Shown here piece by piece: positions 10,311-28,515 of a stretch of 64,000 bases of DNA. This DNA is from Deltaproteobacteria bacterium (GTDB lineage: Bacteria > Myxococcota_A > UBA9160 > SZUA-336), in NCBI GenBank assembly GCA_019311115.1, contig JAFDDB010000001.1, forward strand, positions 30,674-94,673. The letters are read 5' to 3'. The notes below the pieces were generated by a model. It did no database searches. It was not told the origin of the DNA and worked only from the letters and a program-made list of their open reading frames with translations. The translations under genes were made by a program, and so were the position numbers. Within the stretch, counting starts at the first letter, position 1. Each line of letters opens with the position of its first letter.

Positions 10311-11363
10311 CTACCGCAGTTGCGGCATGACGCGGTCGCGCATCAGCTCCATGTGGGACGACACCAGGTCGTCCGACATGCCGCCGAGCCGTGTCCAGCC
10401 CAGCAGGTGGTCGACGCCGATCTGCTCCTTGATCTCGGCGATCCGCTCGGTCACGTAGTCCGGCTCGCCGCAGATGACCGCGCCGTGCGACACGAGTTGC
10501 TCCCACTCCACGACGCTCGCCAGGTCGCGGATCTGCGTGTACCACTCGTAGCCCTCGATCGGCTTCTGCCCGACCTTGGGCGCGACGTACTTTCCGAAGG
10601 TGCGGAAATACCAGATCACCGGGTCCGCGAACTCCTTGCGCGCCCGCTCGTGGTCCTCGCCGGTGTAGGTCATGACGAGCGCGCCGACCTCGTGCGCGGC
10701 CGGGTCGTGGCCGTTCTCTTCGAGCGCCTCGCGGTAGCGCGCGACGCGGTCCTTGGCGACCTGCAGCGATCCGCCGAACACCGGCGACAGCAGCAGGTTG
10801 AAGCCCATGCGTCCGGCCTTCTCGAACGTCTCCTCGGAGAGCGCCGCGAGCCAGATCGGCGGGTGGGGCTGCTGCAGGGGCTTCGGGCGCACCTCGACGT
10901 CGCGGAACGTGTAGTGCTTGCCCTCGAAGTTCAGCCTCTCGTCGGTCCAGGCGCGGCGGATGATCTCGATCGACTCGTCGAAGATCTCGCGGCTCCGGGT
11001 CTGGTCGATGTCGTAGCCCTCGAACTCGATCGGCTGGTAGCCGCGGCCGACGCCCAGCTCGACGCGTCCGCCCGAGAGCAGGTCGAGCATGGCGTAGTCC
11101 TCCGCCACCCGGACGGGATGGTTGAAGGGCAGGACGACCACGCCCGTGCCGAGCCGGATCCGGCTGGTGCTCCGCGCGATCGCGGCCAGCGACAGCGCCG
11201 GGGAGGCGCAGAAGCCGTACTCGCTGAAGTGGTGCTCCGCCGGCCAGACGGAGTCGAACCCGAACTCCTCGGCCCGCTCCATCAGCGTGACCTGCTCGTC
11301 GACCATCTCCTGCTCGCTGCGTCCCATGGGGCTCTCGAACAGGTGGAGCATCCCGAACTTCAT
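10311..11363 (-). CDS. LLM-class (luciferase-like) flavin-dependent oxidoreductase
   Basis: Internal ATG at 11363 (MKFGMLHLFE) after GGGAGGAAG. Motifs FDSVWPAEHHF and LDLLSGGRVELGVGRG. Confidence 0.85.
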   Translation of the reverse strand: MKFGMLHLFESPMGRSEQEMVDEQVTLMERAEEFGFDSVWPAEHHFSEYGFCASPALSLAAIARSTSRIRLGTGVVVLPFNHPVRVAEDYAMLDLLSGGRVELGVGRGYQPIEFEGYDIDQTRSREIFDESIEIIRRAWTDERLNFEGKHYTFRDVEVRPKPLQQPHPPIWLAALSEETFEKAGRMGFNLLLSPVFGGSLQVAKDRVARYREALEENGHDPAAHEVGALVMTYTGEDHERARKEFADPVIWYFRTFGKYVAPKVGQKPIEGYEWYTQIRDLASVVEWEQLVSHGAVICGEPDYVTERIAEIKEQIGVDHLLGWTRLGGMSDDLVSSHMELMRDRVMPQLR

Positions 11364-11418
11364 CGCGTCTTCCTCCCTGCGTGCGCTCTCTTCCGGTTCT
11401 TTCCTGGCAGGGAACGCC

Positions 11419-11455
11419 ATGCTACGATAGGAAATCTGGACAGTCAATCGGAAAA
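11419..11455 (-). promoter_or_regulatory. conserved promoter/operator module, copy M3
   Basis: Minus-strand read: TTTTCCGATTGAC-TGTCCAGA-TTTCCTATCGTAGCAT (TTGACT-17nt-TAGCAT). It lies 55 nt upstream of the LLM start and 11 nt upstream of the divergent hydrolase ATG. Confidence 0.6.
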
Positions 11456-11466
11456 AGAGGGCTCGG

Positions 11467-12237
11467 ATGGCAGAGACGCGACGGATCGACCTGGGAACCC
11501 ATTCGCTTCGCGTGACCGACCGCGCGCCTCGCGTGGCGGGGGAGGGTGCCGGCGACCCTCCTTTCGTCTGCCTCCACGGCCTCGTCGACACCCTCGAGAT
11601 CTGGGACCGCTTGGCCGGCGCGCTGTCGGAACAGCGGCGGACGATCTGCGTCGACCAGCGGGGCCACGGGGAGTCCGGCGCACCCGCGGGTCCCTACGCC
11701 CGCGAGGATCTGGCGGCGGACGTGATCGGCGTGCTCGACGCCCTGGGCATCGAGCGTGCGGTGCTCGTCGGTCACTCGATGGGCGGCATCATCTCGATGA
11801 CGACGGCCGTCGCGTACCCCGACCGCGTCGCGGGCATGGTCCTGCTCGGCACCGCGAGTCGCTGCAACGAGCGCACGGCGAAGTGGTACGAGCGGATCGC
11901 CCAGGCGGGCGAGGCGGACGGCTGCGACGGACTCGCGCGCGCGATCTACGGCGACAAGTCGAAGCGCCGGGTGACCGGCGACGCGAACGCGATCTCGGCC
12001 GTGACGCGGACGCTCGCGAGCCTCTACACCGACCCGCTCACGCCGAAGCTCGAGTCGCTCGACTGCCCCGTACTGCTGCTGGTCGGCGAGAAGGACCCGA
12101 TGGGTCCCCGAGCCTCGGAGATCATCGCCGAGGCGCTGCCCGACTCGACGCTCCAGGTGCTGCCTGGGTGCGGACACTGGATCCACGTCGAGGCCTCGGA
12201 CGAAGTCCGCGCCGCCGCAGCCGCGTGGATCGGCTAG
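11467..12237 (+). CDS. alpha/beta hydrolase
   Basis: Motifs FVCLHGL, DQRGHGES, VGHSMGG (GxSxG) and a C-terminal GCGHW histidine. Confidence 0.85.
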   Translation: MAETRRIDLGTHSLRVTDRAPRVAGEGAGDPPFVCLHGLVDTLEIWDRLAGALSEQRRTICVDQRGHGESGAPAGPYAREDLAADVIGVLDALGIERAVLVGHSMGGIISMTTAVAYPDRVAGMVLLGTASRCNERTAKWYERIAQAGEADGCDGLARAIYGDKSKRRVTGDANAISAVTRTLASLYTDPLTPKLESLDCPVLLLVGEKDPMGPRASEIIAEALPDSTLQVLPGCGHWIHVEASDEVRAAAAAWIG

Positions 12238-13836
12238 CTACCGCTCGTCCAGGCTGCGGCAGCCGATGGCTTCGGCGAGGTGGGAGGGTTCGATCGCGTC
12301 GTCGGCGGCGAGATCCGCGATGCTGCGGGCGACGCGGAGCACGCGCGTGACGGCGCGCATCGAGAGGCCGAGGGTCTCGAGCGCGCGTTCGAGCAGGGTC
12401 CTGCACTCGCGGTCGAGTGCGCAGACGCGCGCGAGATCCGCGGGGGGGAGTTCCGCGTTCGTCAAGAAGGGACGGTCGGCGTAGCGGAGCGCCTGGCGTT
12501 CGCGTGCGGCGAGCACCCGTGCTGCGACGCTAGCACTACGCTCGTTGGTGTTGTCCGCTCTCCGCGTCGGAAGAACGTCGCCGACCGGAACCGGCGGCAC
12601 GGGCACGTGCAGGTCGATGCGGTCGAGCAGCGGGCCGGAGAGCTTGCGGCGGTAGCGGGCGATGGCCGGGTCGTCACACTGGCACTCGTGCCGCTCGTCG
12701 CCGTGGTAGCCGCACGGGCAGGGGTTCATGGCCGCGACGAGCTGGAAGCGCGCCGGCAGGTCGAGTGCGGCGCCCGCGCGCACCAGTCTCACTGCGCCCT
12801 CTTCGAGAGGCTGGCGGAGCGCCTCGAGAACCGGCCGGCGGAACTCCGGAAGCTCGTCCAGGAACAACACGCCGCGGTGTGCGAGCGAGATCTCGCCGGG
12901 GCGGAGCGGACGCCCCCCGCCGGTCATGCCTGCGTCGGAGGTGGTGTGGTGCGGCGCGCGGAAGGGCGGGCGGCGCAGTAGCGCCGCTCCGCCGAGCGTG
13001 CCGGCCACGCTGTGGATGCGCGTGGCCTCGCGCGCCTCTGCGTCGTCGAGATCGGGCAGGAGTCCGGGCAGGCGGCGGGCGAGCAGCGTCTTGCCGCTTC
13101 CCGGAGGGCCGACCATCAGCAGGTTGTGGCGGCCCGCCGCGGCGATTTCCAGCGCGCGCCTCGCGCCAGGCTGACCGCGCACGTCGGCCAGGTCGGGCTC
13201 GTCGGGTCCGCGGGGTGCTTCGGGTCCGGTCCTGGCGCCCGGCGCGGCGAGAACCAGCTCGTCCTTCTCCTGCAGCCACCCGAGCACGCCGGTCAGGGTC
13301 TCCGCACCGAAGACGCGAGCGCCGGGACAGCCCGCCGCTTCATCCAGGTTCGCCAGGGGGACGACCACGCGCTGGAGTCCGGCCAGCGGTGCGGCCGAGG
13401 TCAGCGCAGCGGCGCCGCGAACCGCGCGCAGGGTGCCGTCGAGTCCGAGCTCGCCGAGCAGCAGCACCGACGCCAGCGCATCGAACTCCACCGGCTCGCG
13501 CGCGGCGGCGATCGCGACGGCGATCGGCAGGTCCAGCGCAGAGCCCGCCTTGGGAATCTCCGACGGAGCCAGGTTCACGGTGACGCGCCCCGGCGGGAAC
13601 TCGAGGCCCGACTGCCGGAAGGCGGCGCGGATGCGGTCGCGGCTCTCGCTCACCACGCGATCGCCCTGTCCGACGATCTGGAAGCTCGGCAGGCCGCGGC
13701 CGGCATCGACCTCGACCGAAACCGGACGGCCCTCGATTCCGTAGAGAGTTGCGCCCCAGACTCGGGTCAACACTTGCGAATCCGCATGCGGCGGCTCCGC
13801 GGGACCGGCGGGGCGAGCGAGAACAGGGTAGACCAA
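12238..13836 (-). CDS. comM: YifB/ComM family Mg-chelatase-like AAA ATPase
   Basis: Lon-like N-domain (SEIPKAGSALDLPIAVAI), Walker A (GPPGSGKT) and a ChlI-type region. Start is uncertain: TTG at 13836 or in-frame GTG at 13773. Confidence 0.9.
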   Translation of the reverse strand: MVYPVLARPAGPAEPPHADSQVLTRVWGATLYGIEGRPVSVEVDAGRGLPSFQIVGQGDRVVSESRDRIRAAFRQSGLEFPPGRVTVNLAPSEIPKAGSALDLPIAVAIAAAREPVEFDALASVLLLGELGLDGTLRAVRGAAALTSAAPLAGLQRVVVPLANLDEAAGCPGARVFGAETLTGVLGWLQEKDELVLAAPGARTGPEAPRGPDEPDLADVRGQPGARRALEIAAAGRHNLLMVGPPGSGKTLLARRLPGLLPDLDDAEAREATRIHSVAGTLGGAALLRRPPFRAPHHTTSDAGMTGGGRPLRPGEISLAHRGVLFLDELPEFRRPVLEALRQPLEEGAVRLVRAGAALDLPARFQLVAAMNPCPCGYHGDERHECQCDDPAIARYRRKLSGPLLDRIDLHVPVPPVPVGDVLPTRRADNTNERSASVAARVLAARERQALRYADRPFLTNAELPPADLARVCALDRECRTLLERALETLGLSMRAVTRVLRVARSIADLAADDAIEPSHLAEAIGCRSLDER

Positions 13837-13898
13837 CTCTGCGCAGGAGGCCGGAGGCGAGCGCGGCGTCCCGCACCTGCCGGGTTACGAGGAGACGC

Positions 13899-14840
13899 AT
13901 GCAGCACTCGCGGACGCCGTGTCGAAGCTGGGGACTCCTGCTGGCCCTCGCGCTGGTCGCTGGCGGCGGCGCGCCCGCCCCAGCCTTCGATGGCGAGCGT
14001 GCCTACCGTGACCTTGTCGAGCTGGTCCGGATCGGCCCACGCCCCGCCGGATCGCCGGGCGCCGCCGCCGCGCGCGAGCTGATCGGAGAGCGCCTGCGCC
14101 AGGCCGGCTGGCGCGTGGACGAACACCCACTGCGCGTCGAGGTGGACGGGCAGGGCATCGACATGACGAACTTGATCGGCGTGATGCCGGGCGAGCGACC
14201 CGGCCTCGTCCTGATCGGCACGCACTACGACACGAAGCGCCTGCCTGGCTTCGTCGGCGCGAACGACGGCGCCTCCGGGGTGGCGGTGCTGCTCGAGCTG
14301 GCGCGAACGCTCGGGGACGCTCCCCGTCCCTACACGGTCTGGCTCGTCTTCTTCGATGGCGAGGAGGCGCTCGGCGCCGGCATCACGGCGAACGACGGGC
14401 TCTTCGGCAGCCGCGCCCTGGCGAGGCAGATGCAGCGCGAGGGCGACTTGGAGAAGATCCGCGGCTTCCTGTTGGTCGACATGGTGGGGGACCGCGACCT
14501 GGGGCTCACCGAGGACGTCGGTTCGACACCCGCCCTGCGCCAGGCCCTGGTGGAGGAAGCCGCGCGGCTGGGTCTCGAGGACGTACTCGGTGGCGGAAGC
14601 GTCGCCCTGATCGACGACCACACCCCGTTCCAGGCGCTCGGAGTCGAGCCGGTCCTCGCCCTGATCGACTTCCGGTTCGGCGGCGACTCGATGCCGGGAC
14701 CGCTCTGGCACACGACGGGAGACGACTTGTCCGCCGTCTCCGCCGAGAGCCTGAATAGCGTGGGGAGGCTGCTGGTCGAAGTCCTGCGGAGAGTCGAGCG
14801 CGAGACCGTCGCGCGCGAGGGCGTCGAAGGTGCGCGCTGA
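13899..14840 (+). CDS. M28-family peptidase / glutaminyl-cyclase-like protein
   Basis: Internal ATG at 13899 gives a signal peptide. Motifs GTHYDTK, NDGASGVAVLLELAR, FFDGEE and VDMVG give the M28 metal-ligand pattern. Confidence 0.75.
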   Translation: MQHSRTPCRSWGLLLALALVAGGGAPAPAFDGERAYRDLVELVRIGPRPAGSPGAAAARELIGERLRQAGWRVDEHPLRVEVDGQGIDMTNLIGVMPGERPGLVLIGTHYDTKRLPGFVGANDGASGVAVLLELARTLGDAPRPYTVWLVFFDGEEALGAGITANDGLFGSRALARQMQREGDLEKIRGFLLVDMVGDRDLGLTEDVGSTPALRQALVEEAARLGLEDVLGGGSVALIDDHTPFQALGVEPVLALIDFRFGGDSMPGPLWHTTGDDLSAVSAESLNSVGRLLVEVLRRVERETVAREGVEGAR

Positions 14841-14937
14841 GGCTCGGATCCACTATCCTGCCGCCTCTTTGGAGAGGCGTCGGGCGGGCAGACACCGGCC
14901 CGACACGGGCTCCGGATTCCGGAGCTGGGGGACCCAC

Positions 14938-15594
14938 ATGATACGTACTGCAACCGCGATCCTCGCGGCCGTTGCACTGGCTACGGCCGGCTGCGCCAGC
15001 GGCGAGGGCGGAATGTCCAAGACCCAGAAGGGCGCCCTGCTCGGCACCCTGGCTGGCGCGGTCGCCGGCGCCGCGATCGGTGGCAAGGACCACCGTGCGG
15101 GCGGCGCGCTGATCGGCGCTGCCGCCGGCGCCGTCGCGGGCGGGTTGATCGGCAACTACCTGGACAAGCAGGCCGAAGAGCTCGACGCGATTCCCGGCGC
15201 CGAGGTCGAGCGCCGCGACGACTCGCTGCTCGTGAACTTCCAGAGTTCGCTGCTCTTCGACACCGGACAGAGCTCGCTGCAGCCGGGCGCGTACGACCGA
15301 ATGCGGTCGCTGGCGCGCACGCTCAACAACTATCCGAAGAGCCGGGTCATCATCAAGGGACACACCGACAGCAGCGGGGACGAGCGCTTCAACCAGACGC
15401 TGTCCGAGGAGCGCGCCGGCACGGTCCGGAACTTCCTGATCTCTGAGGCCGTCGCACCCGGGCGGATGACCGCGATCGGCTTCGGCGAGCAGATGCCCGT
15501 CGCGACCAACAACACCCCGGCGGGACGCCAGCAGAACCGCCGCGTCGAGATCGAGATCCGTCCCGACGAAGAGGTCATGCGCTCTGGCGGCTAG
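14938..15594 (+). CDS. OmpA-family (Pal/YiaD-like) lipoprotein with glycine zipper
   Basis: Internal ATG at 14938. Lipobox LATAGC and Gly-zipper GALLGTLAGAVAGAAIGG. The OmpA C-like domain includes GHTDSSGDERFNQTLSEERA...NRRVEIEI. Confidence 0.85.
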   Translation: MIRTATAILAAVALATAGCASGEGGMSKTQKGALLGTLAGAVAGAAIGGKDHRAGGALIGAAAGAVAGGLIGNYLDKQAEELDAIPGAEVERRDDSLLVNFQSSLLFDTGQSSLQPGAYDRMRSLARTLNNYPKSRVIIKGHTDSSGDERFNQTLSEERAGTVRNFLISEAVAPGRMTAIGFGEQMPVATNNTPAGRQQNRRVEIEIRPDEEVMRSGG

Positions 15595-15642
15595 GCCGCA
15601 CGCGCAGCGCTCTACGGCGTGGAATCGGGAGTCGATCCGCTC

Positions 15643-16905
15643 ATGACGCGTCCAATTCTGCCGCTCGCGCTCGTCTTGGCGCTCGCGGTGCCCCCCGTCT
15701 CGGGGAGCGGGGCGACGGACGAGGAGCCGGTCCGGGTCGTCGTCGACCAGCCCCGCAACGGCGAGATCGTGCGCGGCCGCTTCGACATGGCCCCGCTCTC
15801 GGGACTCGCCCACGCCGGAGCGCGCGCCACGCGCTTCGACGTGATGCTCGTGATCGACGTGTCGGGCTCCACCGCCTACCCGAGCGGCCTCGACGTGAAT
15901 CAGAACGGTGAGCTCGGAGTGCAGCGCGCCGCGACGATGAAGGGTGAGCCGGACACGAAGAACACCGACCCGGGCGACTCCGTGCTCGCGGCGCAGGTCA
16001 CCGCCGGCCGCGCACTGCTCGCGGGCCTCGAGCCCGGCCGGGTACGCGTGGGCGTGGTCAGCTTTTCGGGCGAGATCGACCCGGCCACCGGGCGCCGGCG
16101 CTCGCCGAGACAGGTGGACGCCATGGTCGAGCAGCCGCTGACCGAGGACTACACCGCGGTCGACCGCGCGCTCGAGGCCGTGCACCTGCGCGGTGCGCAC
16201 GGCGGAACCAACATGGAGGCCGGCATCAAGATCGCGTTGCGCGAGCTGGCGGGGCTGCGCGGCGCGCGCTCCACGCCGCGCAAGCACGCGAAGAAGATCA
16301 TCCTGCTGCTCACCGACGGGAAGCCGAGCCTCCCGTACGGACTGGGTTCGGAGGAGGACCAGGAGGACATCGACGCCGTCATCAACGCCGCGCACCTGGC
16401 GCGAGCGGGCGGAGTCATGCTGAACGTGTACGGGCTCGGACCGACGGCCATCGACTACCCGATCGCGGCTTCGGAGGCCGCGCGCGTGACGGGCGGCCTC
16501 TACACGCCCGTGCGTCGCCCCGGTGACATCGTGGCGCTGCTTACCGGCGTGTCGTTCGCCAACGTCGAGGACGTGGTGGCCGTCAACCTGACGATCGCCG
16601 AGATGTCCGCTCCCGAGGACATCCTCACCGCGCCCGACGGCTCGTTCAAGGGATACGTTCCGGTCCGCCCGGGGAAGAACCGCATCCGGATCTCGGCACT
16701 CGCGTCGGACGGATCGCGCGGCTTCACCGAGATCGAGTTCACCTTCCGGCACCAGGAGCTGACGGATGCCGAGATGAACTCCGAGCTGGCGCGGATCCGC
16801 AAGCGGAACCGGGAGCTTCAGCTCCTGATGGAGCAGGAGCGTCAGAAGGCGTTTCGCAAGTCGATTCGCGAGCGCGACCTCGAGATCAAGATCGAAGGCG
16901 AGTAG
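15643..16905 (+). CDS. secreted von Willebrand factor A domain protein
   Basis: Signal peptide from M at 15643. MIDAS motif LVIDVSGST, then LLLTDG. The C-terminus is a charged coiled coil. Confidence 0.75.
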   Translation: MTRPILPLALVLALAVPPVSGSGATDEEPVRVVVDQPRNGEIVRGRFDMAPLSGLAHAGARATRFDVMLVIDVSGSTAYPSGLDVNQNGELGVQRAATMKGEPDTKNTDPGDSVLAAQVTAGRALLAGLEPGRVRVGVVSFSGEIDPATGRRRSPRQVDAMVEQPLTEDYTAVDRALEAVHLRGAHGGTNMEAGIKIALRELAGLRGARSTPRKHAKKIILLLTDGKPSLPYGLGSEEDQEDIDAVINAAHLARAGGVMLNVYGLGPTAIDYPIAASEAARVTGGLYTPVRRPGDIVALLTGVSFANVEDVVAVNLTIAEMSAPEDILTAPDGSFKGYVPVRPGKNRIRISALASDGSRGFTEIEFTFRHQELTDAEMNSELARIRKRNRELQLLMEQERQKAFRKSIRERDLEIKIEGE

Positions 16906-16925
16906 AGACGTAGGAGGGGGGGAAG

Positions 16926-17735
16926 TTGAAGACGATCATGCTCATCGCGGTCCTGGTGCTCGGACTGCTCGGTGGCATCGCGGGCATGGTGTCGCCCGTG
17001 CTGGCCCAGCAGGCGCCCGAAGCCGCGGCACCCGCTTCGCCGGGAACACCCGAAGCCTCGGAAGACGACCCCGAGGGCCGGACGCTCGCGGACTGGTACG
17101 CGATGGGCGGCTGGATCATGCACGGGCTGGTGCTCTGCTCGATCCTGACGCTGGCCATGGTCTTCGAACGCCTCTGGGCGCTGCGCCGCGGCGCGGTGAT
17201 TCCGCGCCGCTTCATGCGCAAGCTCATGGAGCACTGGCGCAACCGGGACATCCCCCAAGTGATCGCGATGTGCGGCGAGTCCGACGTGTCGATCGCGCGG
17301 GTACTGCGCGCGGGTCTGCTCCACTTCGACGAGGGCCTGACGCGCGTCGAGGGCGCGATCGAGGTGGCGGGCGAGCACGAGGCGACACTGCTCCGGCGCA
17401 ACCTGTCCGTGCTCTCCGCGCTCGGAAACATCGCCACGATGATGGGACTGCTCGGCACGGTGCTCGGCATGATCGAGTCGTTCGACCTGATCGCGCAGAC
17501 CGGTACGGGCGACGCGCGCGTCGTAGCCGGCGGGATCTTCCAGGCGCTCGTCACGACGGCGGCTGGCCTGATCGTCGGCATCACGGCCGTGGGCTTCCAC
17601 TCGTACCTGCGGCGCAAGGTCGAGATCCTCGAGATCGACCTCGAAGACACGTCGTTCAGGCTGATGGAAGAGATCAGCCTCGAGCGCGAGTCGGCGGGCG
17701 AAGCCCCGGCCGGCCTGACGCCGCAGGAGGCCTGA
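16926..17735 (+). CDS. exbB: MotA/TolQ/ExbB proton-channel family protein
   Basis: LSALGNIATMMGLLGTVLGMI and GGIFQALVTTAAGLIVGI signatures. The N-terminal signal-like segment is followed by a Pro/Ala/Glu-rich linker. Confidence 0.85.
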   Translation: MKTIMLIAVLVLGLLGGIAGMVSPVLAQQAPEAAAPASPGTPEASEDDPEGRTLADWYAMGGWIMHGLVLCSILTLAMVFERLWALRRGAVIPRRFMRKLMEHWRNRDIPQVIAMCGESDVSIARVLRAGLLHFDEGLTRVEGAIEVAGEHEATLLRRNLSVLSALGNIATMMGLLGTVLGMIESFDLIAQTGTGDARVVAGGIFQALVTTAAGLIVGITAVGFHSYLRRKVEILEIDLEDTSFRLMEEISLERESAGEAPAGLTPQEA

Positions 17736-17736
17736 G

Positions 17737-18141
17737 ATGGCGCGGCGCCGCCGCGAGTTCGAGGAGGCCAGTCTCAGCATGACGCCGTTGATCGACGTCG
17801 TGCTGCTGCTGCTGATCTTCTACATGGTCACCACCGCGTTCCAGGATCGTGAGATCGAGCTGATGCTCCCGGAGTCGGACAGCTCGGCCATCCCCGAAGA
17901 GAAGAAGAAGTTCGTGATCGAGATCGGCCGCGGCGAGAACGAACTCGCGATGAACGGCGAGCGGATCACCGTCGAGGGGCTCGACCGCGTGATCGAGGTC
18001 GAGGCCGCGGCGGACAACATTCAGTCGGTCGAGATCAAGGCGGACGAGTACGTCTACCACCGGCGCGTGATCCAGGTGCTCGGGATCGTGAAGAAGCACG
18101 GGGTGGACGCGGTGGGGATCGCCGTCCGGGAGAAGCGGTAG
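17737..18141 (+). CDS. exbD: ExbD/TolR biopolymer transport protein
   Basis: TM segment MTPLIDVVLLLLIFYMVT followed by an ExbD periplasmic domain. It starts 1 nt after the exbB stop. Confidence 0.85.
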   Translation: MARRRREFEEASLSMTPLIDVVLLLLIFYMVTTAFQDREIELMLPESDSSAIPEEKKKFVIEIGRGENELAMNGERITVEGLDRVIEVEAAADNIQSVEIKADEYVYHRRVIQVLGIVKKHGVDAVGIAVREKR

Positions 18142-18169
18142 GGCCTGGCGCCGGGCGGGCCGGGCTGCG

Positions 18170-19525
18170 CTAGTTGAGCGCGGACGGGTTCAGGACTTCC
18201 TTGCGCGCCAGCTTGCCCTTGCGGTAGTGCGATTTCACGTCGATGTCGCCGTCGGCGTTCAGGTCCTGGTCCTTGCGCACGAGCACCATTCCGCCCGGGT
18301 CATCGCCCTCGTAGTGCTCCCAGACGTCGGGGTTCCCGTCGGCGTTGGTGTCCTTCTCGATCCGGGTCGGGATCCCTGTCGCGTCGTAGTAGATCCAGAC
18401 GTCCATCTCGCCGTCGCCGGTGCTGTCCTCGAGCTCGACCGCGCGCCTGCGGTCGCGGTACTGCACGCGGCGGTCGACGCGGCCGTCGCCGTTGGTGTCG
18501 TGCTCCTCGGTGCGTAGCGAGCCGTCGGTGTAGGTGTAGGTGCCGTCGCGCTTGCCGTCGAAGTTGCGATCCACCTCGACCGAGGTGCCGCGGTTGTTCT
18601 CGTAGCGTGTCCAGCGGTCGGGCTTGCCGTCGCCGTTGGTGTCCTCGGCGCGCTGCGCGATCTGCCCGTCCTCGTAGGTATTGTGTGCATCGAGCTGACC
18701 GTCGTAGTCGGTGTCTTCGGAGCGGCGGATCAGGTCACCCGACTTCGCGTCGAAGACCAGCTCGATCTCGGGGTGGCCGTCGCGGTCGGCGTCCAGGGTC
18801 TTGACGACGCGCTCCTGCCGGCCCTCCTTGACCATGGCCTTCTCGTAGAGCGAGTCCGGAATGTCCTTCCGCTCGTAGGGCGGGGCGGGCGAAGAGAGCG
18901 GGTCGTTGGCGAACTCGCCCTCGCTGCGTTCGTCCTGCTCGTGCTTGATCGACTCGTTGATATCTTCCTGGCGGCTGATGGCGGCCAGCAGCTCTTCCTG
19001 CCGCCGCAGCTCGTCCTCGATCTCGCTCTCGAGAGCGTCCTGCCGGTCGAGCTCGTCGTCGATCTCGCGCTCGAGCGCTCCGTCCGCGCCTCCGGCGGCC
19101 GGTCCGGCCGGGCCGCGGGCGGGGCGGCCGGTGTCAAAGGGAACGTCTCCGGTCACCAGGCCGTAGAGCCCGAACAGCGTGGCTCCCGCGAGCGCGCCGT
19201 ACGGACCCGCGATCTGGCCACCGATCACGGTCCCGACGATGAGTCCCTCGGCTGCGCTCTCGGCGTGCTTCTGCAGGGTCGACGGCTTGGAGCGCTGGGC
19301 GGAGTTCGAGGCGGGCTGGGCGGCCTCGCCGCCCGGGGTGACCTCGCCATCCGCGCTCGCGCCGTCCTGCTCGGCGGCCTCGGCTTCGGCCGCGTCGATC
19401 TCGGCCTCGGCGGCCGCATCGGCGCCCCGCGCGGGCGGCCAGTTGGCCGGAGCGGTCGTAGAGCACGCCACGCTCGCCAAGGCCAGCAGGGCCACGCCGG
19501 CTGCGCTGAGGATGGGTCGGCTCAT
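18170..19525 (-). CDS. lipoprotein with glycine zipper, acidic coiled coil and about 8 DxDxDG repeats
   Basis: Lipobox LASVAC and glycine zipper GLIVGTVIGGQIAGPYGALAGATLFGLYGLVTG. The C-terminal half carries about 24-aa repeats, for example DTNGDGKPDRWTRYENNRGTSVEV. GGAGG RBS. The gene sits 45 nt downstream of the 1149-aa gene. Confidence 0.7.
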   Translation of the reverse strand: MSRPILSAAGVALLALASVACSTTAPANWPPARGADAAAEAEIDAAEAEAAEQDGASADGEVTPGGEAAQPASNSAQRSKPSTLQKHAESAAEGLIVGTVIGGQIAGPYGALAGATLFGLYGLVTGDVPFDTGRPARGPAGPAAGGADGALEREIDDELDRQDALESEIEDELRRQEELLAAISRQEDINESIKHEQDERSEGEFANDPLSSPAPPYERKDIPDSLYEKAMVKEGRQERVVKTLDADRDGHPEIELVFDAKSGDLIRRSEDTDYDGQLDAHNTYEDGQIAQRAEDTNGDGKPDRWTRYENNRGTSVEVDRNFDGKRDGTYTYTDGSLRTEEHDTNGDGRVDRRVQYRDRRRAVELEDSTGDGEMDVWIYYDATGIPTRIEKDTNADGNPDVWEHYEGDDPGGMVLVRKDQDLNADGDIDVKSHYRKGKLARKEVLNPSALN

Positions 19526-19570
19526 TGGGGGTCGGGGCCTCCGGTGAGCAAGGCTAGCACGGGGGGCCCA

Positions 19571-22500
19571 TCAGCTCTTCCTGGCCCAGAACTCGCTGAA
19601 GTCGCGGCAGCGGACCCGCTCGAAGCGCTCGATCGAGGGCGGCATCCCGCCGTTGGCGAGCGGGATCTCGGCCTCGGTCTGCAGGTCGAACTGCTGATCC
19701 ACGGCCCCGTCGAAGTCGCTGTCCTCCATCTGGACCGCGGCCTGTCCTCCCTGGAACGTGATCCAGACGTCGGGGAGGCGATCGGCGTTCGTGTCCGCAT
19801 CCAGGCGTGTCTGCTCGCCGTCGTCGAAGACCTGGCGGCGGTCCGCCCAGCCGTCCTTCGTCGAGTCCTCGAGCGCGCTGCTGACGACGCCAGCGGCGTA
19901 CTCGATGACCTCGTACGGCGTGCAGCGGTACACCGGGACTCCGCCCTTGTCGAAGCGCGTCAGGCGGTCCGGCCGGCCGTTGCAGTTGCGGTCCTCTTCC
20001 TGGAGCAAGACGCGCTCCTCTTCGCTCTGCGGATCGAAGTGGATCACGATGTTGGGCTTGCTGCAGCGGCCGCGCGCCTCGGCTTGGAGGATGCGCCGCC
20101 CGTTCGCGAAGTCGACCCACACATCGATGATGTCGTTCTGGTTGGTGTCGATCTGCCGTCGCACGATCACGCCTGCCTCCAGGAACGAGGTCGTGTCGTA
20201 CCGACAGTCGCCATCGGTGTCGACGATGTCCTCCTTGAGGTCGCCGGTCTCGTCGAGCACCTGCTTGTGGTCGAGGCAGCCGTCGCCCGAGGAGTCCTCC
20301 TCGACCTCGCGCGGCTTGCCGTCGACGTAGCGCATGACGCGGTTCGGCTTGCCGTCCTCGTCCGCGTCCTCGATGCGCTCGGTGGGCGTGCCGTTGGCGT
20401 CATACCGGGTCAGCAGATCGGCCTTGCCGTCACGGTCGCCATCCTCGCGGCTCTCCCGTACCTGCCCATCCGCGTACAGCGACAGCCACTGGTCGACGTT
20501 GCCGTCCGCGTCGCTGTCGAGCTCTTGCGCCACGGCGACGCCGTCCTTCAGCGTCACGGTCGCGTCGTACACGCCGTCCAGGTCGGTGTCTTCCGCGATG
20601 CGGTGGGGATCCTCGGCTCCGGCCTTGAAGTACGCCCGGCGGTCCGCGATGCCGTCGGCGTTCTTGTCCGTCTCGACGCGGGCGCGCTCGCCCTTCTCGA
20701 AGTACGAGATCGAGTCATAGAGCCCGTCCCGCGTGGTGTCCGCCTCCTGGCGCGACAGCACGTCGCCTTCGAAGTACGAGATGGTGTCGACCTGGCCGTC
20801 CCCGTCCGAGTCTTCTTCCTGCCGCTCCCGCCCGCCCTCGCTCTTCAGGTGGAGGCGCGTGTCGAAGTTGCCGTCGAAGGTGGTGTCGGAGCGGGTCGTC
20901 GCCGCCACGCCGTCCTGGTAGAGGGTGACCTGGTCGTCCTGCCCGTCGAAGTTGCGGTCTTCGCGCTGCTCGGTCTGCACCCCGGCCACGTACGTCTTGA
21001 AGAGGTCGGGCCTTCCGTCGGCGTTGGTGTCGATCTCGTCGGTCGCGGGTTTCCCCTCGGCGTCGAACAGCGTGACCTGGTCGTAGGCGCCGTCGTTCGT
21101 CGAGTCGGTCTGCTGGCGGATCATGGCGCCGCCCTCGAAGTGGCTGACCACCTCGGCGCGGCCGTCCTCGTCCGAGTCGCGCTCCTCGCGGACGCGCACC
21201 TCGCCGGACTCGTCGTAGAAGGTCCGGCCCTCCGGCACGGCGTCGCCGTCCGCGTCGTGTTCGACGATCGACCGCTTGCCCGCCTCGTAGCGGACGTGCA
21301 GGTCGAAGACGCCGTCGTGGTTCTCGTCGGTCCAGTCGCGGGAGACCCGCCCCTGTGCGTCGTACTCCGCGCGGTAGTCGTCGCGCCCGTCGTGGTTGCG
21401 GTCCTCGCGCATCGCCTTGGGCACCTCGCCCGCCAACTCCAGGTGCCGGTCCGGCTTGCCGTCGCCGTCCGTGTCGAGTTCCTGCGACACGCGGACGCCG
21501 TTCTCGAAGTCCGTCCAGCTGTCGGCGCGGCCGCTGTTGTCGGTGTCCTCGATCATCCGCGTCTGCTGGCCGGTCTCGGGGTCGAGAATCAGCCAGCGGT
21601 CCGCGTCGCCGTCCTTGTCGGTGTCGAGTTCCTGCTTCTCGAGCTTTCCGTCGGCGTAGAAGTTCCACAGGTCGGGCTTCGAGTCGTAGTCCTCGTCGAC
21701 CTCCTGTCGTACGGCCACGCCGTTCTCGAGGAACTCCTCGAAGTCGATCCCGCCGTCGCCGTTGCGGTCCTGCTGGCGGTGCTTCGGCTTGCCGTCCTCG
21801 AACTCGATCTGCAGGTCGAGCAGGCCGTCGCCATTGGTGTCCTCGCGCTGCGAGAGTACCTCGTCGCCGTCGAACACGTAGTCGATGTCGATGCGGCCGT
21901 CGAAATCACGGTCCTCGCGCTGCCCGCTGCGCTTCTCGTCCTCGAACGCCACGAACGTGTCGGCCTTGCCGTCCCGGTTCGAGTCGATGTCCCGCGTCTT
22001 CAGTTCACCGGCGGTGTAGGACTCCACGACCTCCGGCCGGCCGTCCTCGTCCATGTCGCGTTCCTGCCGCACCAGCAGGTCGTTCTCGTAGCTGCGGCGG
22101 GTGTCGACCTTGCCGTCTACGTCGGAGTCGACCTCCTCCCGCTGGCGCACCTCGTTCGCGTCGTAGTACACGTAGAGTTCGGTGATGCCGTCCGCCTCTG
22201 CGTCCCGCTCCTGCCTCACGCGTTTCCCGTTCTCGAAGTAGATCTTCGTGTCGCGCTTGCGGTCGTAGTCGGTGTCGATTTCTTCGCGGCTGATCTGGTC
22301 GTTGTCGTAGAACCCGAAGCGGTCGAAGTCGCCGTCGTCGTTCGTGTCCTTCTCGGTCCTCGACTGCTTTCCGTCGGTGTAGTAGATGCGCAGGTCGAAC
22401 GCGCCGGTCGCGTTGGTGTCCTGCTCCTCGAGTTCGCGCTCGCCGTCCGCGCGGTAGTGGGCCCGGGTCTCGGGGCGGCCGTCTTCGTTGCGGTCGATGA

Positions 22501-23020
22501 GCGTCTCGCCGATCCAGGTGACGGCCGGCTCGCTGCCCGACGCAGGCTTGCTCTTGTACAGCGAGATCTCGTTCGGCTTGCCGTTGCCGTCGGGATCCTT
22601 CTCGAGCCGGACCTTGAGGCCGTTCTCGTAGCGGAGGTGGTAGTCGGCCTCGCCCGTGCCGGTCGTGTCGCGCTTCTCGAACGCGGGCCGTCCCTGCAGG
22701 TCGAGCTCGACCCACAGGTCGATGCGCCCGTCGTGGTCGGTGTCCTGCTCCTGCCGGGTCATCTTGGGCCCGTGGAAGAACTGCCAGAGGTCGACGTCGC
22801 CGTCGAAGTTCTCGTCGAGCTCGATGCGCACCGGCTTGGGGCTGCCGGCGTAGTGCTCCCACAGGTCGATCTTGCCGTCCTGGTTCTGGTCCTTCTCGAT
22901 GCGCAGCAGTTGCTCGTTGTCGTCGTACAGGTACTGGTCGGGGTAGTCGAGCGCGGCGAGCGCGGCGCGAGGTCCGATCAGCGCGCAGAGCGCGAGTAGA
23001 GCGGCGAGGGGGCGGAGCAT
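19571..23020 (-). CDS. giant secreted repeat protein (about 42 tandem 24-aa DxDxDG units)
   Basis: 1149 aa with a signal peptide (MLRPLAALLALCALIGPRAALA). It is almost wholly D-[TSR]-[DN]-x-D-G-x-x-D-x4-[YF]-x2-G-x5-[EQ] repeats. Its ATG abuts the tonB-like stop codon. Confidence 0.8.
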   Translation of the reverse strand: MLRPLAALLALCALIGPRAALAALDYPDQYLYDDNEQLLRIEKDQNQDGKIDLWEHYAGSPKPVRIELDENFDGDVDLWQFFHGPKMTRQEQDTDHDGRIDLWVELDLQGRPAFEKRDTTGTGEADYHLRYENGLKVRLEKDPDGNGKPNEISLYKSKPASGSEPAVTWIGETLIDRNEDGRPETRAHYRADGERELEEQDTNATGAFDLRIYYTDGKQSRTEKDTNDDGDFDRFGFYDNDQISREEIDTDYDRKRDTKIYFENGKRVRQERDAEADGITELYVYYDANEVRQREEVDSDVDGKVDTRRSYENDLLVRQERDMDEDGRPEVVESYTAGELKTRDIDSNRDGKADTFVAFEDEKRSGQREDRDFDGRIDIDYVFDGDEVLSQREDTNGDGLLDLQIEFEDGKPKHRQQDRNGDGGIDFEEFLENGVAVRQEVDEDYDSKPDLWNFYADGKLEKQELDTDKDGDADRWLILDPETGQQTRMIEDTDNSGRADSWTDFENGVRVSQELDTDGDGKPDRHLELAGEVPKAMREDRNHDGRDDYRAEYDAQGRVSRDWTDENHDGVFDLHVRYEAGKRSIVEHDADGDAVPEGRTFYDESGEVRVREERDSDEDGRAEVVSHFEGGAMIRQQTDSTNDGAYDQVTLFDAEGKPATDEIDTNADGRPDLFKTYVAGVQTEQREDRNFDGQDDQVTLYQDGVAATTRSDTTFDGNFDTRLHLKSEGGRERQEEDSDGDGQVDTISYFEGDVLSRQEADTTRDGLYDSISYFEKGERARVETDKNADGIADRRAYFKAGAEDPHRIAEDTDLDGVYDATVTLKDGVAVAQELDSDADGNVDQWLSLYADGQVRESREDGDRDGKADLLTRYDANGTPTERIEDADEDGKPNRVMRYVDGKPREVEEDSSGDGCLDHKQVLDETGDLKEDIVDTDGDCRYDTTSFLEAGVIVRRQIDTNQNDIIDVWVDFANGRRILQAEARGRCSKPNIVIHFDPQSEEERVLLQEEDRNCNGRPDRLTRFDKGGVPVYRCTPYEVIEYAAGVVSSALEDSTKDGWADRRQVFDDGEQTRLDADTNADRLPDVWITFQGGQAAVQMEDSDFDGAVDQQFDLQTEAEIPLANGGMPPSIERFERVRCRDFSEFWARKS

Positions 23021-24061
23021 CTAGTCATTTCCGTGCGTGAAGGTAGCGACCAGCCCCTGGGTGATGATGTAGTGGATCTCCTTGGGGGGCGGCGGGAACG
23101 GGCTCGCGTGCCGGAAGGCCTGCAAGCAGGTGGAGCCGAGCTGCTTGCCGTCGGTGCGCACCACCTTGAGGCCGTGCGCGGACCCGCCGCGGTCGATCCG
23201 GAAGCGCAGGTCGACGGTGCCCGCCCCGACCTCGACGGGCGGATTCCAGCGCGAGTAGACGCGGTCGCGGATCATGCGCAGGTAGGCCAGGCAGACCGGG
23301 TCCTTGCGGCAGTCCTTGGCGACTCCGCCGGGGAGCGAGCCGCGGTCCCCGTCGCCGTGCAGCATGCTCTCCGCCGTGCCGGAGTCGCGCGCGTTGATCT
23401 TGGCGCCCTGCAGGTCGCCGTCGACGACCGTGTCCGACGCCACGCCGCGGACGATCTCGGGCGCATCCACGTCGGCGGCGCGCGGGTTCGTGATCGGTCC
23501 CGAGGCCTCGAGCTTGCGCGGACCGGCCGACGCCTTGGTCACCGAGACCCGGCGCACCGTCGGCGCGACCTGGTCGACCTCGATCGGCTGGATCGGGGTC
23601 ACGACCTCGGCGAACGCGCTCACCTTGGTCGTGTCCACCTTGCGCCGCACGACTTCCTTGGGCGCCTCGGTGATCTGCATGCGCTCGACCTCGACGCGGT
23701 CGGCGCGGTGGATCTCGGGCACCGGCTTGAGTTGCTGGACCTTGGGCTGCACCACGTTCTTGAAACGCTTGACGGACGAGTCGAGGATGCGCCGCGCCAG
23801 GATCTTGGGCTTGGGCGGCTCGGGCCGTTCCTCGAGCATCCGGACCTCGACCGTCTCCTCTTCCGGGATGAACACGTCGAGCAGCACGTCCCAGAACAGC
23901 AGCAGGAGCGCCAGGTGAAGGGCCAGCGACAGGATGATCAGCCACCAGGAGCGGTCGTTGCGCCGCTCGTCCGGGTCGAAAGCCGGCAGGCTGGCCGCAA
24001 GCTGGGCCGCGATGCTGGACGACGCCATGGTCGGCGCTGCGATGGCGGACTGGTCGGTCAT
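23021..24061 (-). CDS. TonB/TolA-like energy transducer
   Basis: Internal ATG at 24061, in frame with ORF 23021..24430. TM segment WWLIILSLALHLALLLLFW and Pro/Lys/Glu spacer EERPEPPKPK. The C-terminal TonB_C-like domain includes VDLRFRIDRGGSAHGLKVV...ASPFPPPP. An alternative ATG lies at 24088. Confidence 0.7.
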   Translation of the reverse strand: MTDQSAIAAPTMASSSIAAQLAASLPAFDPDERRNDRSWWLIILSLALHLALLLLFWDVLLDVFIPEEETVEVRMLEERPEPPKPKILARRILDSSVKRFKNVVQPKVQQLKPVPEIHRADRVEVERMQITEAPKEVVRRKVDTTKVSAFAEVVTPIQPIEVDQVAPTVRRVSVTKASAGPRKLEASGPITNPRAADVDAPEIVRGVASDTVVDGDLQGAKINARDSGTAESMLHGDGDRGSLPGGVAKDCRKDPVCLAYLRMIRDRVYSRWNPPVEVGAGTVDLRFRIDRGGSAHGLKVVRTDGKQLGSTCLQAFRHASPFPPPPKEIHYIITQGLVATFTHGND

Positions 24062-27219: not shown

Positions 27220-28515
27220 ATGCAGATCCGTACCCTCCAGGACGCCGAACGCTACCTCGACGGCTTCATCAACCGCGAGCGCGTGGAGAGCTTCGACTAC
27301 GAGAAGCTCGGCTTGGCGCGCATCCGCGGTCTGCTACAGGCCATCGGCCGGCCGCAGGCGGGTCTGCCGTGCATCCACGTCACGGGCTCCAAGGGCAAGG
27401 GGAGCGTCTCGCTGGCCGCCGAGGCCCTGCTCCGTGCCGCCGGTCGCCGTGTGGGCACCTACACCTCGCCCCACCTCGAGAGCTGGCGCGAGCGCTTCCG
27501 GATCGACGGTCGGGTCGTCGCGGTCGAGGACATGCTGCGCGCGCTGCGGCGCATCCAGCCCGAGGTGGACCGCGTGAGCGCCGACCCGGAGACGCGGCCG
27601 AGCTTCTTCGACGTCACCACGGCGCTCGCCTTCGAGATCTTTCGCGACGCGTCGGTCGACGCCGGCGTGATCGAGGTCGGGCTCGGCGGAAGACTCGACT
27701 CGACGAACGTGGTGGATTCGTCGGTCTGCGTGCTGACGGCCGTGCAGCTCGAGCACACCGACAAGCTCGGTGAGACCTTGGAAGAGATCGCGCTCGAGAA
27801 GGCCGGCATCTTCCGCAAGGAGGTCCCGGTCGTACACGGACCGCTCCCCCCCGAGGCCTACGGCGCACTCTTCGCGCGCTCGGTCGCCGAGGACGCTCCC
27901 CTCGAAGAGGTCGAGGCGCGCGACGTCCGTCCGACTCCCGAGGGCCAGCGGTTCGGACTGCCGGACGGCCGCGTCGTCGAGACCTGCGTGATCGGGACGC
28001 ACCAGGCCACGAACCTGGCGATCGCGGTGCGGTCGTGTGAGCACTTCCTCGGGCGCGCGCTGTCCCCGGCCGAGATCGGCGCGCTGCGCTCGCTGGCGCT
28101 TCCGGCCCGGCTCGAGCGCATCGGTCCGCTCGTGCTCGACTCCGCGCATACGCCCGACTCGGCGCGTGCGCTGCGAGAGACCGTGTGCGCGCGCTGGCCG
28201 GGCCGCCGCTGGGTGCTCGGCCTCTCGATCTCTCGCGACAAGGACGCCCGCGGCATCCTGCGCGAGCTCGCGGGCGAGGCCCGGCTCTGCATCCTGACGC
28301 GGGCCGAGCCGACCCGCTCGATCGACACCGGCGAGCTCGAGGCGCTGGCGCGGGCCTGCGGAGTGGCCCGCGTCGAGGTCTGCGAGGACCCGCTCGAGGC
28401 CGCGGAGCGGGTGCGCAGCGAGTGCGCGCCCGACGAGATCGGCGTGCTGACCGGCTCGATCTACTTTGCCGGCGCCGTTCGTGGCCGGCTTTTGGAGCCC
28501 GCGCGGAGTCGGTAG
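27220..28515 (+). CDS. folC: bifunctional folylpolyglutamate synthase/dihydrofolate synthase
   Basis: Internal ATG at 27220. Mur-ligase motifs HVTGSKGKGS and TSPHL, plus GLGGRLDSTNV and DSAHTPDS. Confidence 0.85.
   Translation: MQIRTLQDAERYLDGFINRERVESFDYEKLGLARIRGLLQAIGRPQAGLPCIHVTGSKGKGSVSLAAEALLRAAGRRVGTYTSPHLESWRERFRIDGRVVAVEDMLRALRRIQPEVDRVSADPETRPSFFDVTTALAFEIFRDASVDAGVIEVGLGGRLDSTNVVDSSVCVLTAVQLEHTDKLGETLEEIALEKAGIFRKEVPVVHGPLPPEAYGALFARSVAEDAPLEEVEARDVRPTPEGQRFGLPDGRVVETCVIGTHQATNLAIAVRSCEHFLGRALSPAEIGALRSLALPARLERIGPLVLDSAHTPDSARALRETVCARWPGRRWVLGLSISRDKDARGILRELAGEARLCILTRAEPTRSIDTGELEALARACGVARVEVCEDPLEAAERVRSECAPDEIGVLTGSIYFAGAVRGRLLEPARSR

Follow-up and report, generated by a model that had tools for sequence, protein, structure and literature searches.

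The DNA analysed here, referred to as the window, is a stretch of 64,000 nucleotides from Deltaproteobacteria bacterium (NCBI GenBank assembly GCA_019311115.1, contig JAFDDB010000001.1, positions 30,674 to 94,673 of the forward strand). Between positions 14938 and 24061 of the window lies a cluster of seven genes in which a motor of the Ton/Tol type and its transducer stand next to two proteins built from acidic DxDxDG repeats. Listing and translation of the open reading frames (ORFs) placed the genes in two converging runs. The plus-strand run comprises a gene for a YiaD-type OmpA lipoprotein (14938-15594, from Pfam and NCBIfam), a gene for a secreted vWA protein (15643-16905, Pfam VWA_2 and VWA), an exbB/tolQ-family gene (16926-17735, Pfam MotA_ExbB) and an exbD/tolR-family gene (17737-18141, Pfam ExbD), separated, as calculated from the coordinates, by gaps of 48, 20 and 1 nt. 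The minus-strand run begins with a tonB/tolA-like gene for a transducer of 346 amino acids (23021-24061; marginal TonB_C match, AlphaFold2 and Foldseek), followed by a gene for a giant protein of 1149 amino acids (19571-23020) and a gene for a repeat lipoprotein of 451 amino acids (18170-19525), the latter two recognised by repeat parsing. At the junction of the first two genes (23018-23023, minus strand ...AAT GAC TAG ATG CTC...), the TAG of the tonB-like gene (23021-23023) directly precedes the ATG of the giant gene (23018-23020), with 0 nt between them; in homologous loci the two genes lie 8-21 nt apart or overlap by 4-10 nt. An earlier note, made from the letters of this DNA, had listed the same seven parts with these coordinates, strands, gaps and stop-start abutment, all of which were borne out by the ORFs, Pfam, NCBIfam and the sequence at the junction. 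In profile hidden Markov model searches, five of the seven proteins matched the expected domains (TonB_C marginally), and the two repeat proteins fell into no Pfam family.

The transducer, the motor and the plus-strand partners

The match of the transducer to Pfam TonB_C is marginal, at 25.2 bits against a cutoff of 24.6, and its identity was settled by structure prediction. Its 83 full-length homologues, of approximately 340 residues, all derive from uncultured bacteria labelled Myxococcota or Deltaproteobacteria. In the AlphaFold2 model, a transmembrane helix (residues 38-63; 23873-23950, minus strand) is predicted with a confidence (predicted local distance difference test, pLDDT) greater than 90. 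Ser45 and His49 of this helix are invariant in an alignment of 29 homologues, forming the SxxxH ("SHLS") motif that brings TonB and TolA into contact with their motors (PMC12204202). The helix is followed by a periplasmic linker of approximately 185 residues (23315-23872, minus strand), predicted to be disordered with pLDDT below 50 over residues 69-245, which carries a short PEPPKPK stretch and is without a long Pro-rich or helical domain II. The C-terminal domain (23024-23314, minus strand) is modelled at pLDDT 93-97 with the TonB/TolA fold, its topology being alpha-beta-beta-alpha-beta. Cys251 and Cys257, located just before this domain, are invariant in the same 29-sequence alignment, and an SPFPPPP motif within it is mostly invariant. 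In Foldseek comparison, the domain matched the TonB domain of H. pylori (5lw8) with a target-normalised template modelling (TM) score of 0.74 and a root-mean-square deviation (rmsd) of 2.3 Å, and the TolA domain of E. coli (2x9a_B) with a target-normalised TM score of 0.77. TonB and TolA are thus matched about equally, implying that the fold cannot tell "Ton" from "Tol". With the SxxxH helix, the fold and the linkage to exbB and exbD all present, the 346-residue protein is a genuine transducer of the TonB/TolA family.

The same ambiguity is displayed by the motor subunits. The ExbB-family protein scored 97 bits on PF01618 (MotA_ExbB) and possesses a signal-like N-terminal extension, and the ExbD-family protein scored 88 bits on PF02472, with an Asp in its transmembrane segment (PLIDVV). 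Among the NCBIfam models, ExbB reached 84.7 bits on tolQ (cutoff 221) and 56.9 on exbB (cutoff 206), and ExbD reached 66.8 bits on tolR (cutoff 127) and 47.2 on ExbD (cutoff 216). Both subunits thus reach higher scores with the tolQ and tolR models than with those for exbB and exbD, yet all values lie far under the equivalog cutoffs. The motor is therefore of the ExbB/ExbD-TolQ/TolR family, with no equivalog-level assignment to Ton or Tol.

Regarding the upstream lipoprotein, the product of 14938-15594 matched Pfam OmpA (78 bits) and Gly-zipper_YMGG, and is composed of a lipobox (...TAGC), a glycine zipper and a C-terminal OmpA domain of the peptidoglycan-binding type. It passes the NCBIfam model YiaD_Gzip_OmpA (NF053611; 235 bits against a cutoff of 175) and fails that for Pal (TIGR02802; 72.7 bits against a cutoff of 125.35); an orthologue was found in 10 related loci. 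The vWA protein, for which an alternative GTG start exists at 15619, matched VWA_2 (43 bits) and VWA (36 bits) in Pfam and contains a metal-ion-dependent adhesion site (MIDAS), DVSGS, at 15856-15870 on the plus strand; it also has a C-terminal domain, and its C-terminal tail reads as a coiled coil. In 11 aligned orthologues, a cleavable signal peptide and a conserved MIDAS (DVSGST) are present throughout, and the hydrophobic segment is without a conserved His, Ser or Asp. In three relatives (L003, L005 and L024) the stop of the vWA gene overlaps the start of exbB, indicating that the vWA gene belongs to the motor operon of this lineage. Putative force transducers with vWA domains adjoin TolQR-like motors (Williams-Jones et al. 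2025, PMC12204202). Such a role as a tethered force transducer was ruled out for the present protein by the alignment of orthologue N-termini, which displays a cleavable signal peptide and no SHLS or Asp-bearing helix.

The giant repeat protein and the repeat lipoprotein

The giant protein begins with a Sec signal peptide (22952-23020, minus strand), after which an array spanning residues 44-1112 (19685-22891, minus strand; repeat parsing and AlphaFold2) holds approximately 45 repeats of 24 residues with the pattern D-x-[DN]-x-D-G-x-x-D-x-h-x-x-[YF]-x-x-G-x(6)-[ED]. Under the strict pattern D-x-[DN]-x-[DN]-G-x-x-D, 38 loops are counted in the giant and 8 in the lipoprotein. The giant contains 15.8% Asp and carries a net charge of -146, and from the motif its DxDxDG loops would be expected to bind Ca2+. 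Residues 900-1149 (19574-20323, minus strand) form a C-terminal "cap" of irregular repeats that includes all six Cys of the mature protein, and on which homologue fragments align with invariant D, C, F and W positions. Close to the C-terminus, a tail motif F.R[IV].C..F[SD].FW (ERFERVRCRDFSEFW; 19586-19630, minus strand) is conserved in 12 orthologues, its core C..F..FW being retained in P0001, a homologue of 30% identity. As no hydrophobic segment follows the motif, the tail is not read as a PEP-CTERM or MYXO-CTERM signal. The window does hold a gene of the exosortase EpsH family (31062-31982, minus strand; PF09721, 178 bits), which implies PEP-CTERM-type sorting in the organism.

In the AlphaFold2 model of the giant, mean pLDDT was 82 and the predicted TM score (pTM) 0.41; the underlying alignment was shallow, with 15 rows, and at this pTM the global fold is not trustworthy. 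Locally, each repeat is modelled as a loop of 9 residues leading into a hairpin of 6 and 7, and the mature protein is helix-free. The model as a whole is one uninterrupted antiparallel meander, with tight turns along one edge and the DxDxDG loops along the opposite edge. If the giant were an open ribbon, its approximately 90 strands would give an estimated length of roughly 40 nm. Mature length is held between 1081 and 1127 residues in 13 orthologues (within about 4%), and a homologue of approximately 30% identity (L021) measures 1089. Conservation per repeat is even along the protein, ranging from 0.45 to 0.7. The held length and even conservation indicate that the repeats are positionally orthologous, and that the giant is a defined object rather than a variable stalk.

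The best Foldseek matches of the giant were the YD-repeat shells of Rhs, teneurin and TcB/TcC, with E values of approximately 1e-20, TM scores of approximately 0.10 and rmsd of approximately 57 Å. These TM and rmsd values imply that the likeness is local only. Membership of the Rhs family was rejected, given that only local 3Di likeness was found; no RHS_repeat match was obtained in Pfam, and a closed shell fold is not supported by these scores. Reading of the giant's sequence, with no dedicated search, revealed neither an Rhs cleavage motif nor a toxin domain. Sequence searches against solved structures returned nothing useful for the giant. The only match from a profile search of solved-structure sequences was to the EF loops of lanmodulin (E 2e-3), with which the spacing of approximately 24 residues is shared; it is marginal and at motif level only.

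The smaller repeat protein is a lipoprotein with a lipobox (19463-19477), a strongly conserved hydrophobic segment of glycine-zipper type (19148-19249) that resembles that of the YiaD-type lipoprotein, an acidic, coiled-coil-looking segment (18929-19075) and eight DxDxDG hairpin repeats (18176-18793, by repeat parsing), all on the minus strand. Lipobox, zipper, acidic segment and repeats are conserved in 11 aligned orthologues.

Linkage of the repeat family to Ton-type motors

Within the lineage of the window, termed lineage 1, a scan of species-representative genomes located the transducer in 13 metagenome-assembled genomes from cold seeps, hydrothermal sites and apparently sponge-derived bins. 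By tblastn, the full seven-gene block, in which exbD, exbB, vWA and OmpA genes face the tonB-like, giant and lipoprotein genes in convergent orientation, was recovered in 10 loci, and two further metagenome contigs also display it. Overall, conservation of the block extends to at least 13 uncultured marine species of Myxococcota. The patatin, TANGO2 and M28 flanks are syntenic too in this lineage; at L024 the M28 gene is missing and the block is intact, a small point in favour of the block. In one genome (L004/L016), the trio of tonB-like, giant and lipoprotein genes is kept, followed by a PEGA/FGE-sulfatase gene, an ExbB gene without ExbD and two vWA genes. At L004 (17677-20567) the ExbB-like gene lacking ExbD and the two vWA genes lie beside the trio, a gene set that matches the "TolQ-only plus paired vWA" class (PMC12204202).

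Beyond lineage 1, a word-index search with the whole giant returned 3 hits and missed full-length orthologues existing in the loci; the Asp-rich repetitive words of the query probably swamped the candidate list. A search with the C-terminal 250 residues returned fragments only. P0001, with 1145 residues and 30% identity, was the only full-length distant homologue from the word-index search, and on its contig exbD-exbB is divergent from a 341-residue gene whose stop overlaps the start of the giant gene. A metagenome scan with P0001 yielded 3 loci only, one of which, a 20-kb contig (L021), was decisive for this second lineage (lineage 2). The gene upstream of the giant in L021 is TonB-like, with SAGLH (SxxxH) in its helix and a C-terminal domain homologous to that of the window's transducer (C..YL..R.R.Y.RW..P, ASPFPP). 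Its flanks differ from those of the window, consisting of an ABC-2 transporter and a GldG-like auxiliary gene on one side and transaldolase and rpiA on the other. The same divergent arrangement of exbD-exbB and tonB-like-giant is found on a frameshift-ridden contig (L027). A 311-residue gene downstream of the P0001 giant was considered as a repeat lipoprotein and dropped, the closely related L021 having a transaldolase there. Beside exbD in L021 (3976-7294) lie genes for an ABC ATPase, an ABC-2 permease and the GldG-like auxiliary protein (ABC_transp_aux), and a GldG-like auxiliary gene occupies the same position beside exbD on the P0001 contig.

A profile search of 1.84 billion cluster representatives gave a repeat family of 5369 members at E ≤ 1e-3 and 1886 at E ≤ 1e-10. 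Besides giant fragments, the best-scoring hits were signal-peptide proteins of approximately 570-590 residues with approximately 24 repeats. In the four loci that were looked up (L026, L028, L029 and L030), exbB directly follows the repeat gene of approximately 590 residues in every case. One of these, L028, lies in a complete genome of 3.79 Mb and 44% GC (CP182354.1), where positions 10001-15745 encode the repeat protein (588 residues), ExbB, ExbD, TonB and a TonB-dependent receptor (TBDR). The gene order at L029 is the same, and L030 holds the repeat protein, ExbB and ExbD before the contig ends. The L028 receptor is matched best in NCBIfam by the "FCYXU motif-type" TBDR model, at 717 bits under the cutoff of 825, where U presumably denotes selenocysteine. 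At L026 (9168-12203), a DUF4213/DUF364 gene, an annotation that we take to denote putative heavy-metal chelation, overlaps the start of the 588-residue repeat gene, and exbB is next; upstream on the opposite strand are genes for a TBDR, FecCD, a periplasmic binding protein, an ABC ATPase and a flavin reductase.

Altogether, exbB or exbD adjoins the repeat gene in seven of the seven readable loci outside lineage 1 (the P0001 contig, L021, L026, L027, L028, L029 and L030), which represent approximately six independent organisms. The linkage is seen in three gene arrangements, in genomes of 44% to 70% GC and down to approximately 30% identity, and in most loci with a tonB-like gene and a giant, the stop of the former and the start of the latter abut or overlap. 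Since ExbB genes are only few per genome, we consider it very unlikely that the genes came to adjoin by chance in each of the three arrangements. Ton-type motors thus have in the repeat family a partner that recurs and has apparently not been described. Full-text searches of the literature (open-access papers and bioRxiv) yielded no account of a Ca-loop hairpin-repeat protein among the components of Ton or Tol.

Regarding the receptor, the window contains 14 ORFs of at least 550 residues, 8 of which were scanned, each either in its own frame or through the real gene beneath it on the same strand, and no Plug or TonB_dep_Rec match was obtained among these 8. The six unscanned ORFs (10266-12350, 14506-16752, 18683-22999, 27334-29709, 30363-32069 and 50090-51757) overlap identified genes and fail a third-position GC filter, and are therefore judged non-coding. 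In the five lineage-1 loci for which precomputed Pfam gene tables exist, the called genes up to 10 kb from the cluster include no receptor; for the remaining related loci, the check consisted only of tblastn with the window's own proteins. Loci of tonB and exbBD are commonly without a neighbouring receptor gene. Elsewhere, a receptor carries the repeats itself: P0003 (L001, 10001-12652) is a TBDR of 883 residues with Plug and barrel, whose N-terminal extension of approximately 150 residues consists of six DxDxDG hairpin repeats located N-terminal to the plug, that is, on the periplasmic side. To our knowledge, this combination of domains has not been described. As related operons encode a receptor or a repeat-fused receptor, a TBDR encoded elsewhere may be the final target of the module.

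These results bear on several statements of the earlier note. That the window holds no TBDR gene agrees with the scanned ORFs. The phrase "instead of a TonB-dependent receptor" overreaches, in view of the repeat-exbB-exbD-tonB-TBDR operons and the receptor fusion. A TBDR as the conserved partner, named there as a finding that would speak against its proposal, is approached by the operons of L028 and L029 and by P0003, with none in the lineage-1 loci checked. The linkage of tonB-like, giant and lipoprotein genes to exbBD, for which neighbourhood comparison had been suggested, survives rearrangement and divergence to approximately 30% identity, and the proposal of an uncharacterised envelope module energised by the proton-motive force is supported. 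The label "cargo" for the repeat proteins found no support. The DxDxDG family, described as unassigned, is indeed uncharacterised; it is no orphan, with more than 5000 cluster representatives in many architectures.

The flanks of the cluster hold unrelated housekeeping genes for an M28 peptidase, a ChlI-like ATPase, a patatin, TANGO2, a Mur ligase and a MaoC hydratase. GC content of the window is approximately 70%, and that of 18000-24000 is the same as in the flanks, giving no sign of recent transfer. Across the repeat genes (18000-24000), AT skew ranges from -0.23 to -0.33, which is attributed to Asp- and Glu-rich coding on the minus strand. A scan for promoters and terminators was uninformative, with 0 promoters and no more terminators than expected by chance. 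A second vWA cluster, unrelated to that of the motor, is a MoxR/Bat-type operon on the minus strand (48597-54021) encoding a MoxR AAA_3 ATPase (53044-54021), a DUF58 protein (52136-53047), a vWA protein (50225-51367) and a vWA protein with TPR (48597-50303). An 873-residue protein with YhdP and DUF748 matches (54517-57138, minus strand; AsmA-like) is a candidate inter-membrane bridge for lipid transport.

Interpretation and comparison with known systems

Starting from the gene content, folds, motifs and recurrent linkage described above, we consider the chance approximately even (about 0.5) that the cluster encodes a Ton/Tol motor working with a Ca2+-stiffened periplasmic repeat scaffold as its adaptor or load. 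ExbB and ExbD constitute the proton channel of the inner membrane, onto which the SxxxH helix of the transducer docks. The conserved genomic partner of the transducer is a Sec-exported repeat family and not a barrel receptor. The repeat proteins may then form the Ca2+-stiffened scaffold in the periplasm, anchored to the outer membrane in this lineage via the lipoprotein paralogue; their periplasmic location is suggested by the signal peptides and lipoboxes, and the link to Ton by the repeats lying N-terminal to a TBDR plug. The C-terminal domain of the transducer would directly engage this scaffold, probably through beta-strand addition, the obvious mode for such a fold, with an exposed edge strand or the conserved C-terminal tail as the acceptor. 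The scaffold would act as adaptor or load. The vWA protein may add metal-dependent protein contacts, and the YiaD-type lipoprotein a peptidoglycan anchor. A bolder version, which is put forward as speculation, is that of a third class of TonB/TolA-type force transfer besides Ton and Tol-Pal, in which the motor would pull on, or be positioned by, a hairpin ribbon of fixed length loaded with Ca2+, its anchor in the outer membrane being the lipoprotein paralogue with the glycine zipper. In other Ton operons and in the receptor fusion, the repeats would then represent the general adaptor.

Several points weigh against a scaffold that acts as adaptor or load. Contact between transducer and repeat protein, location, Ca2+ binding and transfer of force are all steps that we infer, and the overall three-dimensional shape of the giant is not fixed by the model (pTM 0.41). 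Synteny in lineage 1 includes the flanks, so that conservation there is weak evidence alone, and one lineage-1 genome (L004/L016) is without the OmpA-vWA-exbBD half within 10 kb. The lineage-2 clusters have no gene for a repeat lipoprotein, a vWA protein or an OmpA protein next to them, indicating that the seven-gene form may be a lineage-specific elaboration or partly fortuitous. Furthermore, in remoter members of the family the repeats are combined with HEAT, GDSL-lipase, RHS and cadherin/FG-GAP domains; as a module the repeat is generic, and the Ton link belongs to the giant-like subfamily.

The same parts could also be arranged as a receptor-independent tether of outer membrane, peptidoglycan and inner membrane resembling Tol-Pal, in which the TonB-like protein would stand for TolA, the giant would take the position of TolB, the OmpA and repeat lipoproteins would stand for Pal, and the motor would mobilise or tension the whole. 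The lack of a TBDR among the scanned window ORFs and within 10 kb in the five lineage-1 loci is consistent with such a tether, as are the presence of two lipoproteins of the outer membrane, of which one has an OmpA domain that binds peptidoglycan, the higher scores of the tolQ and tolR models and the C-terminal domain that matches TolA as well as TonB. It is nevertheless doubtful. The tolQ and tolR scores are far under the equivalog cutoffs, the lipoprotein is a YiaD equivalog and not Pal, neither TolB nor CpoB is present, the lineage-2 clusters keep only exbBD, tonB-like and giant genes and are without those for OmpA, vWA and lipoprotein, and related repeat genes are found in TBDR-containing operons or fused to a TBDR. 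The parallel with Tol-Pal drawn in the earlier note is weakened by the same facts. Alternatively, the repeat proteins might be no mechanical partners at all and serve instead as a high-capacity periplasmic buffer, store or chaperone of cations (Ca2+, lanthanides or another metal) for TonB-dependent uptake, in the manner of lanmodulin. Such binding is favoured by the acidic DxDxDG loops, of which each protein carries 24-45, by the net charge of the giant (-146) and by the EF loops of lanmodulin (E 2e-3) as the sole sequence match among solved structures. The short relatives in TBDR operons point the same way, one of them (L026) lying beside DUF364/DUF4213, TBDR, FecCD, periplasmic binding protein and ABC ATPase genes, and so does the fusion in P0003, where the repeats are placed at the site from which an imported ligand would emerge. 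The segments between loops, however, are hairpins here and helices in lanmodulin, so that the match is at motif level, and no metal importer was seen in the lineage-1 or lineage-2 clusters. A cation store would also leave unexplained the abutment with the transducer gene, the conserved length, the Cys-rich cap and the lipoprotein paralogue, and its probability is considered low.

Much less probable is that remote receptors are energised by an ordinary Ton system and that the genes for repeat, vWA and OmpA proteins are unrelated neighbours kept in place by synteny. It is general knowledge that tonB/exbBD loci commonly have no adjacent TBDR, and the whole region including its flanks is syntenic in the lineage. 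Neighbours of this kind would hardly remain linked in three gene orders, at 30% identity and from 44% to 70% GC, with stop-start abutment or overlap in most loci. Equally little weight is given to an Agl/Glt-type apparatus for gliding or surface motility, or to an Rhs-like beta-cocoon that encloses cargo. The host is labelled Myxococcota, a TolQR-like motor with TonB-like and vWA proteins recalls AglQRS, GltG/J and CglB, and the top Foldseek matches of the giant are Rhs/teneurin shells (E ~1e-20). Against these stand the lack of a Glt-family match in Pfam or NCBIfam and a vWA protein that is soluble and secreted, not a lipoprotein. The cocoon is further opposed by a giant with no RHS_repeat match in Pfam and, on reading, no Rhs cleavage motif or toxin domain, and by the TM score of ~0.10 and rmsd of ~57 Å to the Rhs shells.

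Ton and Tol-Pal are the two textbook routes by which energy of the inner membrane is delivered to the outer membrane in diderm bacteria. It has been suggested that more motor-coupled systems remain undiscovered (PMC12204202). The present locus offers a concrete candidate, a TonB/TolA-type transducer with a secreted calcium-loop repeat partner of tightly fixed length. As members of the repeat family head receptor-containing Ton operons in unrelated bacteria, one of which has a complete genome, their role could be testable in a growable host. Should the repeat protein be an adaptor or load, a new class of component would be added to Ton biology; should it be a metal buffer, it would represent a relative of the lanmodulin idea with very high capacity.

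In comparison with Ton, the cluster shares MotA_ExbB, ExbD and a transducer whose SxxxH helix is followed by an extended linker and a C-terminal domain of TonB fold, together with a TBDR in related operons. It differs in that no TBDR was found in or near the cluster (scanned window ORFs, and 10 kb in five lineage-1 loci), that the partner conserved next to the transducer is a Ca-loop hairpin-repeat protein of the secreted type, and that the linker is not a Pro-rich polyproline II rod. With Tol-Pal it has in common the motor, a TolA-like transducer (TM score 0.77 to TolA for the C-terminal domain), a partner in the periplasm and, in the outer membrane, a lipoprotein that carries an OmpA domain. 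Here, TolB and CpoB are absent, the lipoprotein is of the YiaD type, and the lipoprotein genes are missing from the lineage-2 clusters; none of the seven proteins matched a TolB family in Pfam or NCBIfam, and the giant is modelled as a meander and not as a propeller. As for the Agl/Glt machinery, to which the cluster had also been likened, no match of the GltA/B/H/K, GltC/D/E or CglB type was detected in Pfam and NCBIfam, remoter homology being beyond the reach of these libraries. No component specific to that machinery was thus recovered, and the CglB-type vWA lipoprotein contrasts with the soluble vWA protein with signal peptide found here. The vWA transducers of PMC12204202 resemble the present case in the vWA gene placed immediately upstream of a tolQ/exbB-like gene, overlapping it in relatives. 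Those proteins carry an SHLS transmembrane helix or an Asp-bearing transpore helix, whereas the present vWA protein has neither and is accompanied by a separate TonB-like transducer.

The repeat proteins can be compared in the same manner. With the Rhs/YD and MORN/YwqK-type repeats the giant shares a continuous beta-hairpin meander (Foldseek E ~1e-20 to Rhs shells), and some members of the repeat family are labelled YwqK-like by the Joint Genome Institute; it differs in the DxDxDG loop present in every repeat and in giving no RHS_repeat or MORN match in Pfam. Partial matches were obtained to the Leptospira adhesin family Lsa25.6 (NF050087; giant 70.1 bits, lipoprotein 27.3, cutoff 150) and to DUF6802 (PF20615; 17.8 bits, cutoff 27), all under the curated cutoffs. 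Lanmodulin is a periplasmic lanthanide binder of the EF-hand type, encoded near a TBDR. Acidic D.D.DG..D loops approximately 24 residues apart, a periplasmic location (predicted for the repeat proteins) and a genomic tie to TonB-dependent uptake are common to both, but lanmodulin is built of helical EF hands with 4 sites, whereas the repeat proteins described here carry 24-45 loops linked by hairpins.

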